DNA from: Escherichia phage VerenaMeyer_Bas76
Strand: one strand, 5' to 3'
Length of the DNA stretch: 43,821 nt
Sequence record: PQ850632.1
Part shown: piece after piece, positions 3,341-38,084 of the stretch
Position numbering within the stretch: the stretch's first letter is position 1
Layout: each line of letters starts with the position of its first letter
Translations under genes and position numbers: made by a program
Notes under the pieces: model-generated
What the model saw: the letters and a program-made list of their open reading frames with translations, nothing else
Database searches by the model: none
What the model was told of the DNA's origin: nothing

Positions 3341-4417
3341 ATGCTATTAACTTTAGCGCCACAGGGTTTATCTATGAGCTTACTTACATCCCTAATCAGC
3401 CATCAGATATGGCTGCAACGCACCGCATCCGGTGAGGTGAAAGACCTCACGCCGTTCATTCAGGAGATAAGGGATGAAATCAAACGGCAGGTGCTGTTAT
3501 TCGGTGACGACGGTCGCAGCACTGCGCGACTGAATAAACTGTTACGCGACCTGGAAGAAGCACTAACCGGTATTACGGGTGACTGGCAAACAAAGCTAAC
3601 AGACGACCTTAAGGAACTGGCGGCGTACGAGGCTGAGTGGAACGTAAAGACACTGACCGCCAACGTAGACGCGGAATTTGTTACGCCTACCGCTGAGCAG
3701 GTATGGGCCGCTGCCGAGTTTCAACCATTATCATTGAGCGACAAGCCCGTTGATTTCACCAAGCTGATGTCTGGATGGGGCGAAACGGAAGTAGCACGTC
3801 TTGTAACTGGAGTTAAGATGGGCTTTGTGCAAGGTCAAACCACACGGCAGATTGTTAAGAATGTTGTTGGCGCTGGTGGACTAGCCGACATCTCAGAACG
3901 TAACGCGACTACGGTAATCCGCACCGCGCTGTCCCACGTATCCAACGAGGCCCGTAACGAGACGTACCGCCAGAACGACGACATCATCGAGAAGTACGAG
4001 TGGGTGTCAACGCTTGACAGCCGCACCAGTACGATTTGCAGGGTCAGAGACGGGATGACGTGGGAAATTGGTAAGGGGCCGATGCCCCCAGCCCATCCGA
4101 ACTGCCGGTCGTGCACGGCTCCGGTAATCAGTTCCGAGTTCGACTTCCTCGATAAAGGCGCAAAACGCGCGGCTAAAGGCGCGGAAGGTGGCACTCAGGT
4201 AAGCGCAGACACCACTTACTACGAGTTCCTTAAACAACAACCGGCGTGGTTTCAGGACCAGGCGCTCGGCCCGGTGCGAGGTAAGATTTTCCGTAACAGC
4301 GGTATATCGCCGGAAGAGTTTCGCGTAATATCTGTAGATGGTTTCGGGAATCCGCTCACGCTTAAGCAGATGGCGGAACTCGATAAACGTGTTGCTGATT
4401 ATCTGAAAGGGGAATAA
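3341..4417 (+). CDS. head morphogenesis protein (SPP1 gp7 / Mu F-like)
   Basis: 358 aa, directly after portal. Composition and position match the minor head protein family usually found after portal. ATG 3374 is an alternative start. Confidence 0.6.
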   Translation: MLLTLAPQGLSMSLLTSLISHQIWLQRTASGEVKDLTPFIQEIRDEIKRQVLLFGDDGRSTARLNKLLRDLEEALTGITGDWQTKLTDDLKELAAYEAEWNVKTLTANVDAEFVTPTAEQVWAAAEFQPLSLSDKPVDFTKLMSGWGETEVARLVTGVKMGFVQGQTTRQIVKNVVGAGGLADISERNATTVIRTALSHVSNEARNETYRQNDDIIEKYEWVSTLDSRTSTICRVRDGMTWEIGKGPMPPAHPNCRSCTAPVISSEFDFLDKGAKRAAKGAEGGTQVSADTTYYEFLKQQPAWFQDQALGPVRGKIFRNSGISPEEFRVISVDGFGNPLTLKQMAELDKRVADYLKGE

Positions 4418-4878
4418 TGATGGGCTTTTTCAAAGTAACTGACGTACCGTCTCGTCGCGTAGTCCAGTACGCCCGCGTGTCTGGCTCTGGCGAGAACGTG
4501 GTATTTATTGAGGACGAAAGTGTACTCGGTACACCGGTAGATGATATGCCGTTTGCAGATAAAACCGGTATTGCGTTGCCCGCCGCCGGTATGCTTTATG
4601 AAATTCCGTATCTGGCGGACGCTGGCGACGTGTATTTCTCTGTGCAACCAAAAGACGCTGAACTGGCCGACGGCAGCGCGACTATCACTGTCGAAGTTAA
4701 AGCAGGTGAAGCGCCGTATGCACTGACCTGGTACAAAGACGGTAAGGAAGTTGTCAACGCCCCGGAAGAGGCACTTTCCTTGACGGTTAACGCAGTGGGT
4801 GAATACTTCGTTAAAGTTACCGATGCTGATGGTGTAGAGGCTGTCAGTAAAGCTGCGAAGGTCACTAAGCCCGAATGA
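4417..4878 (+). CDS. Ig-like domain protein (possible capsid decoration protein)
   Basis: 153 aa, start overlaps the previous stop (TAATGATG). The C-terminal segment YALTWYKDGKEV...GEYFVKVTDADG is an Ig-like/BIG fold signature, paralogous to the C-terminus of ORF 7880..8221. Confidence 0.55.
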   Translation: MMGFFKVTDVPSRRVVQYARVSGSGENVVFIEDESVLGTPVDDMPFADKTGIALPAAGMLYEIPYLADAGDVYFSVQPKDAELADGSATITVEVKAGEAPYALTWYKDGKEVVNAPEEALSLTVNAVGEYFVKVTDADGVEAVSKAAKVTKPE

Positions 4879-4880
4879 TA

Positions 4881-4908
4881 AAAGGCCCCATTAAGGGGCC
4901 TTAGTTTT
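4881..4908. terminator. bidirectional intrinsic terminator (AAGGCCCC-ATTA-AGGGGCCTT)
   Basis: GC-rich hairpin with T-run on the plus side (AGTTTT) and A-run/T-run on the minus side. Sits between convergent genes 4417..4878(+) and 4908..5111(-). Member of a three-copy terminator family (see 12138 and 24196). Confidence 0.65.
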
Positions 4909-5111
4909 CAACGGAATCTTGTGTTTAAATCCTGCTCGTGGACGACCCTCAGAACAGTGTCATAATCCCCGTATCTTCCAGGTTCAAATATATCTAATGC
5001 CTTGTAAGCAGACATTGCGTCAGGGAAAACCTGCAGAACCTTTTTAACCCGGCACAAGTCACCGTCGAACTCTTCATCGAACTCTTGAACTACTTCGCAA
5101 ATTGCATACAT
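4908..5111 (-). CDS. hypothetical small acidic protein (67 aa), opposite-strand island gene
   Basis: ATG at 5111..5109 preceded by GGAGGTG on the minus strand. Driven by a TTGCAC-N17-TACTAT promoter copy and ends at the bidirectional terminator. No recognisable domain. Confidence 0.5.
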   Translation of the reverse strand: MYAICEVVQEFDEEFDGDLCRVKKVLQVFPDAMSAYKALDIFEPGRYGDYDTVLRVVHEQDLNTRFR

Positions 5112-5138
5112 TTTTCACCTCCTGTTTAAGTTAACTGA

Positions 5139-5167
5139 ATAGTACCCTATTATATTGGGGTGTGCAA
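5139..5167 (-). promoter_or_regulatory. sigma70-type promoter TTGCAC-N17-TACTAT (early promoter family copy 1)
   Basis: Minus-strand reading TTGCACACCCCAATATAATAGGGTACTATTCA. Near-identical copies at 13943..13971(-), 36609..36637(+) and 38025..38053(+). Confidence 0.55.
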
Positions 5168-5233
5168 ACTATTTATTTACGTATTCCAGTTATTCCACCG
5201 AATTGTAAATGTTGGAATAAACTATTCGAATAG

Positions 5234-5262
5234 TTGACTTTTCACTAAAAATATGATAAGCT
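5234..5262 (+). promoter_or_regulatory. candidate promoter TTGACT-N17-TGaTAAGCT overlapped by palindrome ACTATTCGAATAGT
   Basis: -35 TTGACT at 5234-5239; extended -10 (TG at 5254-5255, hexamer TAAGCT at 5257-5262). The 14-bp perfect palindrome at 5221-5234 abuts the -35. Confidence 0.3.
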
Positions 5263-5440
5263 CCACCTGAGCTTGTGAAGTATGAACAAGCGACCGCGGC
5301 GCGGGCAGGTAACGGAGCGGGACGTAAGTCCTGAGTGTAGTTACGCTGACGCGTTCGGAAGGGCCATACTCTATTGCTTGTGTAAAAAGTAACAGGTTTA
5401 CTGAGATTACGCCGTTTCTATGTTTAAATGATAAGGACTA

Positions 5441-5468
5441 GCGCCCCGCTTTATGGCGGGGCTTTACT
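5441..5468 (+). terminator. intrinsic terminator/attenuator upstream of the spanin genes
   Basis: Stem GCCCCGC/GCGGGGC (5443-5449 with 5456-5462) followed by TTTACTT, 19 nt upstream of the Rz-like start. Confidence 0.5.
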
Positions 5469-5486
5469 TATCGAGAAAGGGGAAAC

Positions 5487-5873
5487 ATGAATCTTAAAGC
5501 AACTGTCGTAGCAGGAGCATGTTTCATCATCCTGGTTTACGCACACGGCATCTACCAGTATCGCAGCGGATGGAACGAAGGCCGGGCTAATCTCGTTTCG
5601 CAGCAACAGCAGAAAGCACAGGCTGAGTTAGCGAAGAAAACACAACGGCAGCAGCAGGATGAATCGAAGGCCGCCGCCGCTGACAACGAAGGCAAGACGA
5701 AATCAGAGGTGATTACCCGTGAAGTCGTTAAGTACATTAAAACGCCTGGTCGCAGTGTGTGCGCTTTTGACCCTGAGCGCGTGCAGCTCAAGTCCCGCGC
5801 CGTCGCAAACGCCAACTCCATCCCCGGATACGACGATGATGCAGCCGCCGTGCAAACTGGCACCGCCAAGTAG
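5487..5873 (+). CDS. i-spanin (Rz-like inner-membrane spanin)
   Basis: 128 aa. N-terminal transmembrane anchor (ATVVAGACFIILVYA) followed by a charged, Q/A/K-rich periplasmic region. Contains an out-of-frame lipoprotein gene, the Rz/Rz1 hallmark. Confidence 0.7.
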   Translation: MNLKATVVAGACFIILVYAHGIYQYRSGWNEGRANLVSQQQQKAQAELAKKTQRQQQDESKAAAADNEGKTKSEVITREVVKYIKTPGRSVCAFDPERVQLKSRAVANANSIPGYDDDAAAVQTGTAK

Positions 5874-12137: not shown

Positions 12138-12166
12138 ACTAAGGCCCCTTTCGGGGCCTTTTTCTC
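12138..12166. terminator. bidirectional intrinsic terminator (AAGGCCCC-TTTC-GGGGCCTT)
   Basis: Hairpin with TTTTTC on the plus side, sitting between convergent genes 10964..12136(+) and 12165..12395(-). Same family as 4881 and 24196. Confidence 0.65.
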
Positions 12167-12395
12167 ACTCATCAATATTACTTCGATACTCCCGTAACTT
12201 CTCCAGACTTTCAATTGCTTCTGCTAAGTCGGTTCCGGTGTCCTTATGCCCGCGAAGACCCATGCACAATAACTTCTTCAATGCGTGCTGTAGTGCGGGG
12301 TCACGGATGTCGAAGGCACGGAGAACATCGTAAACGTCTACGGTCATAGTGCTGCCGTGAGTGTTTGTCATTGTTCGGTTGTATTTTGAAGTCAT
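12165..12395 (-). CDS. hypothetical protein (76 aa), last gene of the opposite-strand cassette
   Basis: Start overlaps the upstream stop (ATGA coupling with 12392..13522). No recognisable domain. Confidence 0.45.
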   Translation of the reverse strand: MTSKYNRTMTNTHGSTMTVDVYDVLRAFDIRDPALQHALKKLLCMGLRGHKDTGTDLAEAIESLEKLREYRSNIDE

Positions 12396-13522
12396 CCCAG
12401 CATCTCCGGTGAAATAGTTAAACGTGCGACCTCGCCATATTCGGCGCTATAAGTAATTACATTTGCACTACGGCCTGACATCCACCCGCCGCGGGAGGCA
12501 TAGGCGTCTTTAGCCGCTAAGGTGCGGTGTTGCTCAACAATCATGTTACGGCTTTCTACAATCTTCTGGTGGTGCAGGTGGCCTACGTGGGCGTAGCTAT
12601 AGACACTCTCACCGAACGCTTTGCGGAATTTGGCAATCATAACCGGTTCGATAGCATCGAATCGCGCCTTATGCCCGTGGTGAAAGAACAACGTCGTTTT
12701 TCCGTGTTGCACCATCTTGTAAACATCCGGCGACGTATCGACAATCACTCGGCTGTCGTTCGAATATAAAACTGTGAACATTTCAGCCAGCCATACAGAG
12801 CCTACAGGGTCATGGTTCCCCTGTACGATAAGCAAGCGAACATTTTTATGTTTAACCAGTGCCATATCTACAACACGGCGTACCATACGAATCATGTAGC
12901 GGACGAGTTTCTGGTAGCGAGTGTCTGCGTCCAACACGTGACGCGACTCGGGTGTAACGGCATCCAGACTATCGAAGTGCGCGAAATCACCCAGCAGGTT
13001 AATAACTCCTGTTCCTGCATCCGGTGCTTTCTGAAACGCCGCGTCGAACCAACGAGAGAACAGGTCTTCCGCAATCTTTATATCCCAGTCGTCGCCGCTC
13101 TCGTCGGCCCAGGCAAGCATACCGAGATGGAAATCAGATACCGTGTAAAGATTGAGTAGCTTGTCGTCGCGTTTGGCTCGAGTCGCTTTAGCCGGCGCAA
13201 CTGGCGTAATCTCTGACTTCATGCCTTCAATCACGGCTTTCATCAACTCGACCTGACGTTCAGCGTCGGTGTCTGTCTTAACCCATTGCAACTTAGTATT
13301 GCCGAACTCGTCTACCAGAGACGACGTCCCTTTAATCTTGTAGCCGTCTGGGACAAGGTGGCTAACGTCACGCCCGTGGCCTACACCTTTCTTAGCCAGC
13401 TTCGCTTTACGGATACGAATAACTCGGTCTGAGATGCCGTATTTACGGGCGATGTCTACATTCTTCATCCCGGCGTTCAATTCTTCCTGTAACTGTTCGT
13501 CGGTTATTTTCTTCTGGGCCAT
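12392..13522 (-). CDS. HTH-domain protein fused to calcineurin-like metallophosphoesterase
   Basis: 376 aa. N-terminal HTH (VDIARKYGISDRVIRIRKAKL). Ordered metallophosphatase motifs: SDFHLG, GDFAHFD, GNHD, HHGH, GHLHH. Confidence 0.7.
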   Translation of the reverse strand: MAQKKITDEQLQEELNAGMKNVDIARKYGISDRVIRIRKAKLAKKGVGHGRDVSHLVPDGYKIKGTSSLVDEFGNTKLQWVKTDTDAERQVELMKAVIEGMKSEITPVAPAKATRAKRDDKLLNLYTVSDFHLGMLAWADESGDDWDIKIAEDLFSRWFDAAFQKAPDAGTGVINLLGDFAHFDSLDAVTPESRHVLDADTRYQKLVRYMIRMVRRVVDMALVKHKNVRLLIVQGNHDPVGSVWLAEMFTVLYSNDSRVIVDTSPDVYKMVQHGKTTLFFHHGHKARFDAIEPVMIAKFRKAFGESVYSYAHVGHLHHQKIVESRNMIVEQHRTLAAKDAYASRGGWMSGRSANVITYSAEYGEVARLTISPEMLG

Positions 13523-13587
13523 GCTTACTTCCTCGTGTTTAGGATTTGTCCTATTTAACCACAGTGGATTCCTTTAAATAAAGGCAA

Positions 13588-13914
13588 CTATTTACTTTCT
13601 GCGCCTATCGCCCACCCTGTCATTACCATTTGCAGACGGGTGGCTGTCAGTAGGCTATAGAAAGCATCTCCGTTTTTCTCTACCGAACGTATCACTGTGT
13701 AGGTTACGGCCTGCGGGGGTAGGCCCGATTTACCGACATCTACGGCGGCCTCGCATTCACGGACTGTGGAGTCCTTAAATGCCTTTACAATAGTAGGGTC
13801 GGCTTTATCAAGCACACCAGAAGTCATAAGAACAGATTCACTAAATACCTGTTCGCACGGGGCTCCAAAAGTAGCAAAAGACATAAAACCCAGAGCTAGT
13901 ACTAATTTACGCAT
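13588..13914 (-). CDS. secreted/periplasmic small protein with signal peptide (108 aa)
   Basis: N-terminus MRKLVLALGFMSFATFGA is a classic signal peptide. ATG preceded by GAGGAA. First gene downstream of promoter copy 2. Confidence 0.55.
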   Translation of the reverse strand: MRKLVLALGFMSFATFGAPCEQVFSESVLMTSGVLDKADPTIVKAFKDSTVRECEAAVDVGKSGLPPQAVTYTVIRSVEKNGDAFYSLLTATRLQMVMTGWAIGAESK

Positions 13915-13942
13915 AATTATTTCCTCAGTAAGTTACATGTGA

Positions 13943-13971
13943 ATAGTACCCTATTATATTGGGGTGTGCAA
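13943..13971 (-). promoter_or_regulatory. sigma70-type promoter TTGCAC-N17-TACTAT (early promoter family copy 2)
   Basis: Minus-strand reading TTGCACACCCCAATATAATAGGGTACTATTCA, identical over about 30 nt to the copy at 5139..5167. Confidence 0.55.
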
Positions 13972-24195: not shown

Positions 24196-24224
24196 ACTAA
24201 GGCCCCAAACGGGGCCTTTTCTCT
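24196..24224. terminator. bidirectional intrinsic terminator (AAGGCCCC-AAAC-GGGGCCTT)
   Basis: Hairpin with TTTTCTC at the junction of the convergent late (plus) and replication (minus) operons. Third copy of the terminator family. Confidence 0.65.
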
Positions 24225-26941: not shown

Positions 26942-27257
26942 TTCTAAATTCCTTATATTGTTGGGGTATGTGCTTACTATAATAGTCTGCTATTAGGGTG
27001 TCAATCTGTTTTATCGAACCAACGACAAAAACATTTGCGCCACGTTTACGTATACGCTCGTGTTCCCGTAGCTGGTGCGGGTCTGGCTTAGTGTTTTCGT
27101 CTTTCTTCACCTCGACGAACCAGACGATGCCGCCGGGTAGAATTGCCAGCAGGTCAGGAGCGCCTGAACGTCCTTCGTAGGAAAGTTTACGAACGAGGCC
27201 ACCAATGGCCTCGAATCGCTCTTTTGCGTATTTCTGGATGCGGCCCTCTTTAGTCAT
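26925..27257 (-). CDS. VRR-NUC domain nuclease
   Basis: 110 aa. PD-(D/E)XK-type motifs GAPDLLAI...VWFVEVKK...QLREHE, characteristic of VRR-NUC. Confidence 0.7.
   Translation of the reverse strand: MTKEGRIQKYAKERFEAIGGLVRKLSYEGRSGAPDLLAILPGGIVWFVEVKKDENTKPDPHQLREHERIRKRGANVFVVGSIKQIDTLIADYYSKHIPQQYKEFRNETRI
26975..27003 (-). promoter_or_regulatory. sigma70-type promoter TTGACA-N17-TATAGT (internal, inside the 3' end of the VRR-NUC gene)
   Basis: Minus-strand reading TTGACACCCTAATAGCAGACTATTATAGT. Same family as 30678 and 32978. Confidence 0.45.
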
Positions 27258-29945: not shown

Positions 29946-29973
29946 TTAGTAAAAAGGCCCAATGAAGGGCCTT
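29946..29973 (-). terminator. intrinsic terminator/attenuator between the SSB-like and polymerase genes
   Basis: Minus-strand hairpin AAGGCCC-TTCATT-GGGCCTT followed by TTTTTA. Confidence 0.45.
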
Positions 29974-33006: not shown

Positions 33007-33030
33007 TGGGCTTTTCTAAAATAATTAATA

Positions 33031-36608: not shown

Positions 36609-36637
36609 TTGCACACCCCAATATAATAGGATACTAT
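36609..36637 (+). promoter_or_regulatory. sigma70-type promoter TTGCAC-N17-TACTAT (early promoter family copy 3)
   Basis: TTGCACACCCCAATATAATAGGATACTATTCA followed by the leader CGAAACGAGACAGAGGAG. Confidence 0.55.
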
Positions 36638-36662
36638 TCACTTATCGAAACGAGACAGAGGA

Positions 36663-38024: not shown

Positions 38025-38053
38025 TTGCACACTAAGATAGAATAGGCTACTAT
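38025..38053 (+). promoter_or_regulatory. sigma70-type promoter TTGCAC-N17-TACTAT (early promoter family copy 4)
   Basis: TTGCACACTAAGATAGAATAGGCTACTATTCA followed by the leader ACACAAACGAGAGGAGAGACGGAAG. Confidence 0.55.
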
Positions 38054-38084
38054 TCATTTACACAAACGAGAGGAGAGACGGAAG

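Follow-up and report, generated by a model that had tools for sequence, protein, structure and literature searches.

Cassettes in which orphan open reading frames (ORFs) are flanked by a repeated early promoter and a GGGG/CCCC stem-loop, known as promoter-early stem-loop (PeSL) cassettes, have been described in the T4-type phages RB49 and phi1 (Arbiol et al. 2010, PMC2839356). The PeSLs insulate the orphan ORFs from late genes and mediate their gain, loss and replacement; promoter activity, terminator activity and the formation of mini-circles have been demonstrated (PMC2839356). The morons of lambdoid phages, as summarised in the same paper (PMC2839356), are a second described kind of accessory unit. 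A region with features of both was analysed in a 43,821-nucleotide (nt) stretch of DNA from Escherichia phage VerenaMeyer_Bas76 (PQ850632.1), referred to as the window. The region contains a minus-strand gene for an acidic protein of 67 amino acids (aa) at 4908-5111, a promoter-like repeat upstream of it and a G+C-rich hairpin downstream of it.

The reading that is favoured, with reasonable though by no means full confidence, takes the region as a self-contained cassette for the expression of an accessory gene, of the moron/PeSL kind, lying antisense at a natural boundary of a late head-gene operon in a virulent Kagunavirus, with a product that is likely early and partner-binding.

The cassette and its variable slot

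In the window, the 67-aa gene is flanked by a Hoc-like Ig-type head decoration gene (4417-4878) and an Rz-like spanin gene (5487-5873). The sequence-only reading, an earlier note on this DNA, had placed a small acidic minus-strand gene between an Ig-like head gene and a spanin, and this gene is present at its coordinates. The slot was compared in 39 IMG/VR loci, fetched via the Hoc-like protein, and in three GenBank phages; the interval from the Hoc-like stop codon to the spanin start codon was extracted in 41 loci. This interval is empty in nine of the 41 loci and occupied in 32. Empty slots measure 340-344 nt; the promoter motif and the AAGGCCCC..GGGGCCTT hairpin are both missing from them, and a unidirectional terminator (GCCCCGAAAGGGGCTTTTT) is all that they contain. 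The G+C content is 0.414 in the cassette and 0.441 in the 67-aa ORF, compared with 0.517 in the Hoc-like gene and 0.548 in the spanin gene. Because the slot is empty in nine relatives that have neither motif nor hairpin, and because the G+C content is lower than that of the flanks, the cassette is an insertion.

Each of the 32 occupied slots contains one minus-strand ORF (two in one case), and most have the same promoter, ribosome-binding-site and terminator frame. Twelve cargo families without detectable mutual similarity are found in them (Table 1); in the 28 occupied loci that lack the family of the 67-aa gene, its place is taken by 11 unrelated families. At the junctions of XY2, ZCEC5 and L017, conservation runs to the stop codon on one side and to the ATG on the other, and the ORF alone differs. 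The conserved sequence around these cargos includes the ribosome-binding site, the promoter and the terminator. On this comparison, which the sequence-only reading had proposed as a check, the cassette appears to be dispensable for growth, its frame is reused for many cargos and the cargo is interchangeable. The hypervariability of the slot was absent from that earlier reading, as were the palindrome common to two promoter classes and the published motif that are described below.

A second antisense island lies in the interval from the end of a tail gene (12136) to the tail assembly chaperone gene (14079), with the same hairpin and promoter at its ends. This island was compared in the window and in 50 fetched loci (L051-L095 among them). 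The 376-aa protein usually present in it matches a PHROG family named 'DNA repair exonuclease' and has sub-threshold Pfam metallophosphoesterase matches. The promoter-proximal gene encodes, in alternation, a 108-aa protein with a signal-peptide-like N-terminus or a hydrophobic protein of 59-68 aa. The distal genes are variable, and some Jerseyvirus-like loci contain one small gene or none. A single cargo family (94-128 aa, phrog_1273) is common to both islands, at 32-34% identity. At the sequence level, the earlier reading was right that one promoter type heads two or more antisense islands, and both of the islands compared are variable.

The alternative cargo seen most often in the slot is the one of 173 aa (10 of the 32 occupied slots; XY2, L002:1507-2028; VIPECOTPH05A, L003:1507-2028). 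One record names it 'DNA polymerase III sliding clamp' and another 'RusA-like Holliday junction resolvase'. Neither name looks reliable, since phrog_3007 and a hit below threshold to the central domain of the clamp (16.8 bits, cutoff 27) are the only evidence. An orphan N6/N4 DNA methyltransferase is encoded in two IMG/VR relatives (L016:3483-4211 and L019:1837-2577, approximate coordinates from slot offsets). It is the sole cargo with a clear function, which is plausibly anti-restriction.

The window belongs to the genus Kagunavirus. Over the 1.6 kb around the cassette, it is 99.5% identical to Escherichia phage AnnaReinhart_Bas75, and the top match among 300 matching phage records is Escherichia phage vB_Ec_DUEC01 (99.7%). 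The remaining matches are mostly Escherichia and Salmonella phages of the Guernseyvirinae genera Kagunavirus and Jerseyvirus. The Bas75 genome is laid out in three blocks, namely plus-strand late structural genes, a leftward replication block, and a rightward block of small ORFs followed by lysis genes. No tRNA genes were found in the window and no Rfam families at the gathering threshold; the stretch 4850-5520 gave chance-level Rfam matches only. One related record, OR594183.1 (L049, Escherichia phage vB_EcoM_SHAK7858), is assigned to Autographiviridae / Kayfunavirus in the GenBank taxonomy, and its name suggests a myovirus. Its Hoc-like/spanin/cassette region is collinear with the Kagunavirus window and 92.5% identical to it, and the record is therefore probably misclassified.

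Table 1. Features of the cassette and related elements in the window, and cargo families of the slot. Positions are those of the window.
Feature	Position	Strand	Remarks
Whole cassette (terminator, ORF, ribosome-binding site, promoter, ~13 nt beyond)	4879-5180	minus	Missing from empty-slot relatives (alignment against four empty loci)
G+C-rich hairpin AAGGCCCC-ATTAA-GGGGCCTT	4882-4902	either	Likely intrinsic terminator of the minus-strand gene
Gene for 67-aa acidic protein	4908-5111	minus	ATG start; homologue of Bas75_0006 (hypothetical protein in Bas75); weak phrog_27256 match
Shine-Dalgarno sequence AGGAGGTG	5116-5123	minus	4 nt upstream of ATG; kept ahead of unrelated cargo ORFs
Promoter-like repeat, first copy	5136-5167	minus	TTGCAC (5162-5167), 17-nt spacer, TACTAT (5139-5144); predicted transcript start ~5132
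Palindrome AATAG-N4-CTATT	5138-5151	either	Overlaps -10 element; candidate operator
Plus-strand promoter-like site	5222-5262	plus	Palindrome CTATTCGAATAG (5222-5233), TTGACT (5234-5239), 17-nt spacer, TGnTAAGCT (5254-5262)
Second antisense island	12165-13914	minus	Genes for 108-aa, 376-aa and 76-aa proteins; closed by hairpin 12141-12161, promoter 13940-13971
Promoter-like repeat, second copy	13940-13971	minus	Heads antisense island 12165-13914; exact 32-nt repeat of first copy
Promoter-like repeat, third copy	36609-36640	plus	Heads rightward small-ORF operon, first ATG 36672
Promoter-like repeat, fourth copy	38025-38056	plus	More diverged; inside rightward operon, ATG 38085
Cargo, 173 aa			10 loci; phrog_3007, weak sliding-clamp similarity
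Cargo, 67 aa	4908-5111	minus	4 loci; the protein encoded in the window
Cargo, 63-111 aa			No identification
Cargo, 94-128 aa			phrog_1273
Cargo, 70-75 aa			Hydrophobic N-terminus, likely membrane protein
Cargo, 242-246 aa			N6/N4 DNA methylase, PF01555, E-value 6e-30
Cargo, 83-101 aa			No identification
Cargo, 141-179 aa			phrog_1035
Cargo, 74 aa			phrog_8705
Cargo, 57 aa			phrog_20712
Cargo, 114 aa			Lipoprotein-like, phrog_13472
Cargo, 200 aa			phrog_5434

Promoter-like repeat, operator candidate and likely terminator

The repeat that the sequence-only reading had seen in common between the cassette and 13943-13971 is exact over 32 nt. A degenerate form of the promoter pattern gave four matches in the window against 0.00 expected, and the strict form was found in 27 of the 32 occupied slots. 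Each of the four copies, read from TTGCAC to TACTAT, faces a gene start: a Shine-Dalgarno sequence and a start codon follow 20-30 nt downstream of the predicted start of transcription. The motif search recovered no copy in which TACTAT varies, whereas the -10 candidate of the opposite strand drifts between TATATT, TATGTT and TATGCT; TTGC and ATAATAGGGTACTATTC are almost invariant among relatives. Because the four copies face a gene start, TACTAT does not vary and the opposite -10 candidate does, a predicted promoter directed from TTGCAC to TACTAT, into the gene, is supported.

The palindrome AATAG-N4-CTATT matches 12 times in the window at no more than one mismatch, against 1.18 expected. Its copies in promoter-like contexts are exact at 5138, 13942, 26981, 30683, 32983, 36625 and 38041 and contain one mismatch at 33027. 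A second promoter class, with the near-consensus form TTGACA-17-TATAGT, is present in the replication block at 26975, 30677 and 32977, with a tandem diverged copy at 33026; a minus-strand gene starts 30-60 nt downstream of each of the three main copies. The TTGACA-17-TATAGT class carries the palindrome in its spacer, and in the TTGCAC-17-TACTAT class the palindrome overlaps the -10 element. It may reasonably be inferred to be a common operator through which a phage regulator would act on both promoter classes. The half-sites also occur everted, as CTATTC-GAATAG, directly next to the -35 element (5234) of the plus-strand promoter-like site.

The promoter motif is already known descriptively as a 'phage regulatory element' from PHIRE analyses (PMC9825357, PMC8790156). 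It was reported as 'tgAATAGTa-ccTATTat-T' in Kagunavirus fBC-Eco01, where it was attributed to promoters of a phage-encoded RNA polymerase (PMC9825357), and as 'TAATAGTACCCTATTATGTT' in phage SGP-C (PMC8790156). The attribution in fBC-Eco01 is probably wrong, because the annotation of the near-identical Bas75 genome includes no RNA polymerase gene and because sigma-70-like -35/-10 contexts surround the motif. No experimental test of the motif was found in the literature.

Relatives of the hairpin at 4882-4902 are located at 12141-12161, 24199-24219 and 29953-29973, and the hairpin pattern gave six matches in the window against 0.16 expected. The fold energy is -16.3 kcal/mol on the plus strand and -16.7 kcal/mol on the minus strand. 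A terminator scan called the hairpin for the minus strand only, and its plus-strand tail reads AGUUUUC. The hairpin probably also ends the plus-strand terminase-to-Hoc operon, and bidirectional termination is plausible, though it would be weaker in the plus direction. The sequence-only reading had described a bidirectional terminator of the same family as those at 12138 and 24196; the family holds, with 29953 as a further member.

According to the mechanism proposed, host sigma-70 RNA polymerase would start at TTGCAC-17-TACTAT (5167-5139, minus strand), and a short monocistronic mRNA with a strong ribosome-binding site would be made. Transcription would stop at the hairpin (4902-4882), which would also insulate the converging terminase-to-Hoc transcript. 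The latter transcript would end at this site anyway, and the conserved plus-strand promoter-like site would restart transcription; an antisense unit with a two-way hairpin could be inserted there without disturbing late transcription. The palindrome over the -10 element would let a phage regulator shut the promoters off together. The conserved end blocks (~45 nt and ~25 nt) may act as homology patches at which recombination swaps cargos between phages and slots. Since the same element heads the rightward operon at 36609, the gene is most likely expressed early, with the small-ORF set of that operon; early timing and the co-regulation with that operon, as stated in the sequence-only reading, are suggested here by sequence identity alone.

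Several observations weigh against this cassette reading. TTGCAC-17-TACTAT agrees with the sigma-70 consensus at seven of 12 positions and a generic promoter scan gave no call, so the promoter status of the element is argued from repetition, position and conservation rather than from a consensus score. Within the 32-nt element there are also a perfect TATAAT and, on the opposite strand, a TATATT, because of which it could fire both ways or could mainly be a protein-binding site. The only temporal RNA-seq study of a Kagunavirus (K1B4) called no gene in the slot. Cargo exchange by recombination at the flanks is suggested by two things only, the positions of the junctions and the case of phage VSt10 described below. 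As to the product, the 67-aa gene is carried by all of Bas70-75, and these isolates were described as highly sensitive to restriction-modification systems in the BASEL study; a broad anti-restriction role is therefore unlikely.

The strongest alternative is considered unlikely. In this view, the 32-nt repeat is primarily a phage-regulator site, or a bidirectional or opposite-facing promoter, and the gene could be expressed in the middle or late phase or constitutively, without co-regulation with the operon at 36609. The palindrome AATAG-N4-CTATT within the repeat agrees with this view, and the other-strand core (TGAATAG-N4-CTATTATA) is the same as in the TTGACA-17-TATAGT promoters of the replication operon. 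The published PHIRE analyses likewise call the motif merely a 'phage-specific regulatory element'. At 13940 and 36609 the opposite strand matches the -35 hexamer at four of six positions with the correct spacing, whereas at 5136-5167 the plus-strand -35 position reads AAGTTA or TTTAAG and matches at two or three. The next plus-strand gene, moreover, has its own highly conserved promoter-like site (5234-5262), and the gene starts 20-30 nt downstream of all four copies, together with the varying opposite-strand -10 candidate beside an invariant TACTAT, argue for a promoter that faces the cassette gene.

The plus-strand promoter-like site at 5222-5262 is found in occupied and empty slots alike and therefore lies outside the cassette. 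Downstream of it come a leader of ~200 nt and, ~25 nt ahead of the spanin ATG, an intrinsic terminator (5443-5462). The promoter-leader stretch (5222-5486) shows 93% mean column identity over 38 distinct loci and hardly changes even in loci whose spanin proteins are down to 67-77% identity. Six predicted base pairs show pair-keeping changes on both sides, the single-sequence fold has a z-score of -2.8, and no Rfam family matches the stretch. This order of a promoter and then a terminated leader resembles the late promoter, 6S leader and tR' of lambda; if it is indeed lambda-like, the head and tail genes would be controlled by antitermination. The 36-aa ORF Bas75_0007 (5282-5392, plus strand) lies in the leader. 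It is probably non-coding, because one-base indels shift its frame in L014, L035, L038, L039, L044 and L047 and the nucleotide sequence stays highly conserved.

The 67-aa protein, its homologues and its likely role

The 67-aa protein contains 14 D/E against 8 K/R residues and has an isoelectric point of 4.5 and a net charge of -6.4. The ratio of nonsynonymous to synonymous substitution rates (dN/dS) of its gene is 0.23 relative to the copy of SHAK7858 (dS 0.40) and 0.11 relative to that of VSt10, where dS is saturated. A word search in a set of 5.8 billion proteins gave 18 clusters of close relatives, and homologues were found by tblastn in 32 phage records (20 Escherichia, 6 Salmonella and 6 Klebsiella). 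The homologues are 46-96% identical to the window protein and keep its length. The family has 12 invariant columns, and across several phage genera there is little or no variation in an FDG motif, a VLQVF core and a C-terminal FR. The AlphaFold2 model (predicted local distance difference test score 91.2, predicted template modelling score 0.73) consists of a beta-hairpin, two helices and a third strand (beta-beta-alpha-alpha-beta). Because of the low dN/dS, the homologues in many phages, the kept motifs and the confident model, ORF 4908-5111 is a real gene under purifying selection. Coding conservation in related genomes, the lack of which the sequence-only reading had named as grounds for its own refutation, is thus evident.

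Database searches gave few leads to the function. A profile search of 1.84 billion representative proteins with the 67-aa family returned 22 matches, none with an informative domain; three long proteins among them were aligned via short repeated stretches only. The single match in PHROGs is weak (E-value 4e-4), to a family of unknown function, and searches of Pfam and PADLOC gave none. The model resembles four uncharacterised small phage proteins of a viral structure library, one of them the VSt10 homologue (template modelling scores 0.71-0.85), and no resemblance was found among solved structures. Neither sequence nor fold likeness was found to characterised anti-defence families (Ocr, ArdA, Acr, Acb1, Tad and others) in Pfam and PDB. 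The BASEL paper contains nothing on the gene.

Homologues occur in several other genomic positions. In the Jerseyvirus (Salmonella phage) VSt10, the gene lies antisense in a different slot, between the portal and head-morphogenesis genes. It stands there behind TTGCTT-17-TACTAT with the same AATAGGGTACTATT box and ahead of AAGGCCCCGTTATGGGGCCTT (AAGGCCCC..GGGGCCTT), in a frame like that of the window. In the Klebsiella Jedunavirus Geezett, the homologue is antisense between a Mu-F-like head gene and the portal gene and has a different promoter-like sequence upstream. The homologue of phage Shemara belongs to a string of small genes after the endolysin gene, that of Klebsiella phage Kpn2-P2 is two genes upstream of the DNA primase gene, and those of other Guernseyvirinae-like contigs directly follow DNA polymerase A and precede a SNF2-type helicase. 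From these placements, the gene is mobile between lineages of phages, and outside cassettes it accompanies early or replication genes. A conserved partner gene was considered and rejected; the genes downstream of the homologues in Geezett, Kpn2-P2 and VSt10 show no relationship, either among themselves or with the 173-aa cargo. Gene 30 of vB_Kpn2-P2 (L006:2024-2485), directly upstream of the homologue, is annotated as 'RNA ligase'. It also has a sub-threshold match to the anti-CBASS protein Acb1 (PF23474, E-value 1e-3, 19.3 bits, cutoff 27) that is too weak to use and gives no more than a faint hint of counter-defence genes around the homologue in that phage.

The product of the 67-aa gene is most likely an early host-takeover, counter-defence or replication-accessory factor that would bind a protein partner. 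It appears to be dispensable for virion formation and is probably expressed ahead of the late genes. A protein that is small, acidic, compact, dispensable, mobile and probably pre-late fits a binder or modulator of a host or phage protein. A wider proposal is put forward tentatively and is doubtful as a whole. In it, Guernseyvirinae would keep a few standard docking slots at late-operon boundaries between terminator and promoter, where the promoter-operator/ribosome-binding-site block and the bidirectional hairpin would serve expression and, as linkers, recombination as well. Early cassettes ready for expression would carry orphan genes from slot to slot and from one genome or genus to another, independently of a recombinase, in a PeSL-like system of small siphoviruses, and the 67-aa cargo would inhibit a protein of host defence or host regulation.

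A purely replicative role, in which the protein would act on a polymerase, helicase or primase, for example as a small acidic partner or mimic, and would have no part in counter-defence or host takeover, is improbable. The homologues beside DNA polymerase A and the SNF2-type helicase and near the primase gene of Kpn2-P2 agree with such a role, as does the weak similarity of the alternative 173-aa cargo to a sliding-clamp central domain. Those of Geezett (between portal and Mu-F-like head genes) and Shemara (after lysis genes) do not, and the slot is empty in nine of 41 relatives that have the same kinds of replication genes. No similarity of the 67-aa protein to known replication proteins was found. 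A function in head assembly or in the virion is far less probable again: position alone speaks for it, with the Hoc-like decoration gene on one side and the spanin, scaffold and capsid genes on the other, whereas the gene lies on the opposite strand with its own predicted promoter, is missing in nine relatives and replaced by 11 unrelated families in 28, and has homologues elsewhere in replication or early clusters. That the ORF is a chance open frame in a merely regulatory spacer is next to impossible, since the frame, although short (67 aa) and without a Pfam family, shows a dN/dS of 0.11-0.23, a length, FDG motif and C-terminal FR conserved across several phage genera, a strong Shine-Dalgarno sequence, a confident structure model and 22 matches among 1.84 billion representatives, a conservation pattern by which this reading is refuted.

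Significance and comparison with known systems

The slot is a natural catalogue of dispensable, probably early genes, with at least 12 families in addition to the cargos of the second island. It is found in 44-kb phages with tractable laboratory members (Bas70-75) that grow on E. coli K-12. Slots of this type tend to collect genes for counter-defence, superinfection exclusion and host takeover, and the cargo list therefore supplies definite candidates for screens. For the engineering of payloads into these phages, the standard frame of promoter, ribosome-binding site and terminator offers a safe site and a ready expression context.

The likeness to integron cassettes is functional only, in that promoterless or standardised cargo ORFs are placed in a fixed expression context. 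Each Kagunavirus cassette, in contrast, carries its own promoter; no integrase is annotated in the near-identical Bas75, and in place of attC-like sites a promoter and a terminator flank the gene. The hotspots of P2-like phages and P4-like satellites (Rousset et al. 2022, PMC9122126) similarly hold interchangeable, mostly uncharacterised accessory genes at a fixed position between conserved genes. As described there, they contain multi-gene anti-phage systems in prophages and satellites, whereas the Kagunavirus slot contains a single small gene behind a standard phage promoter in a virulent phage.

The morons of lambdoid phages (Hendrix / Juhala et al. 2000) are single genes with their own promoter and terminator, as the cassette is at the sequence level. 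They are inserted between genes that are adjacent in relatives, here the Hoc-like and spanin genes in nine of 41 loci. They differ from their flanks in base composition (here 0.414 against 0.517 and 0.548) and are dispensable in the lytic cycle. Classical morons, however, are found in temperate phages and are often expressed from the prophage, whereas the present phage is virulent and the promoter is common to a presumed early operon. Their acquisition has been proposed to be illegitimate and site-independent, whereas one frame is reused here for at least 12 cargos.

The PeSL cassettes are the closest described system. In both, a sigma-70-like promoter and a G/C-rich stem-loop are repeated in the genome (four promoter and four hairpin copies here) and stand on either side of orphan ORFs that are not essential. 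At the junctions that were read, these motifs delimit gain, loss and replacement between close relatives, and the cassettes would be insulated transcriptionally from their late neighbours, as judged here from sequence alone. The PeSL, however, is a contiguous unit of ~100 bp between tandem ORFs, whereas the promoter (5136-5167) and the hairpin (4882-4902) lie at opposite ends of the Kagunavirus gene and would adjoin only in a circularised cassette. PeSLs are located in the hyperplastic early regions of a 165-kb myovirus and the present cassettes in antisense slots within the late operons of a 44-kb siphovirus, and the palindromic box in the promoter is a feature of the Kagunavirus cassette. 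If it is true that the flanks drive cassette exchange, the PeSL mechanism would reach beyond T4-type phages. The slot is an ordinary but tidy accessory-gene slot and no new kind of system. The cassette is of the moron type and is closest to the PeSL cassettes of T4-type phages; it is not a strict member of that group, because the contiguous composite promoter-stem-loop element is missing.

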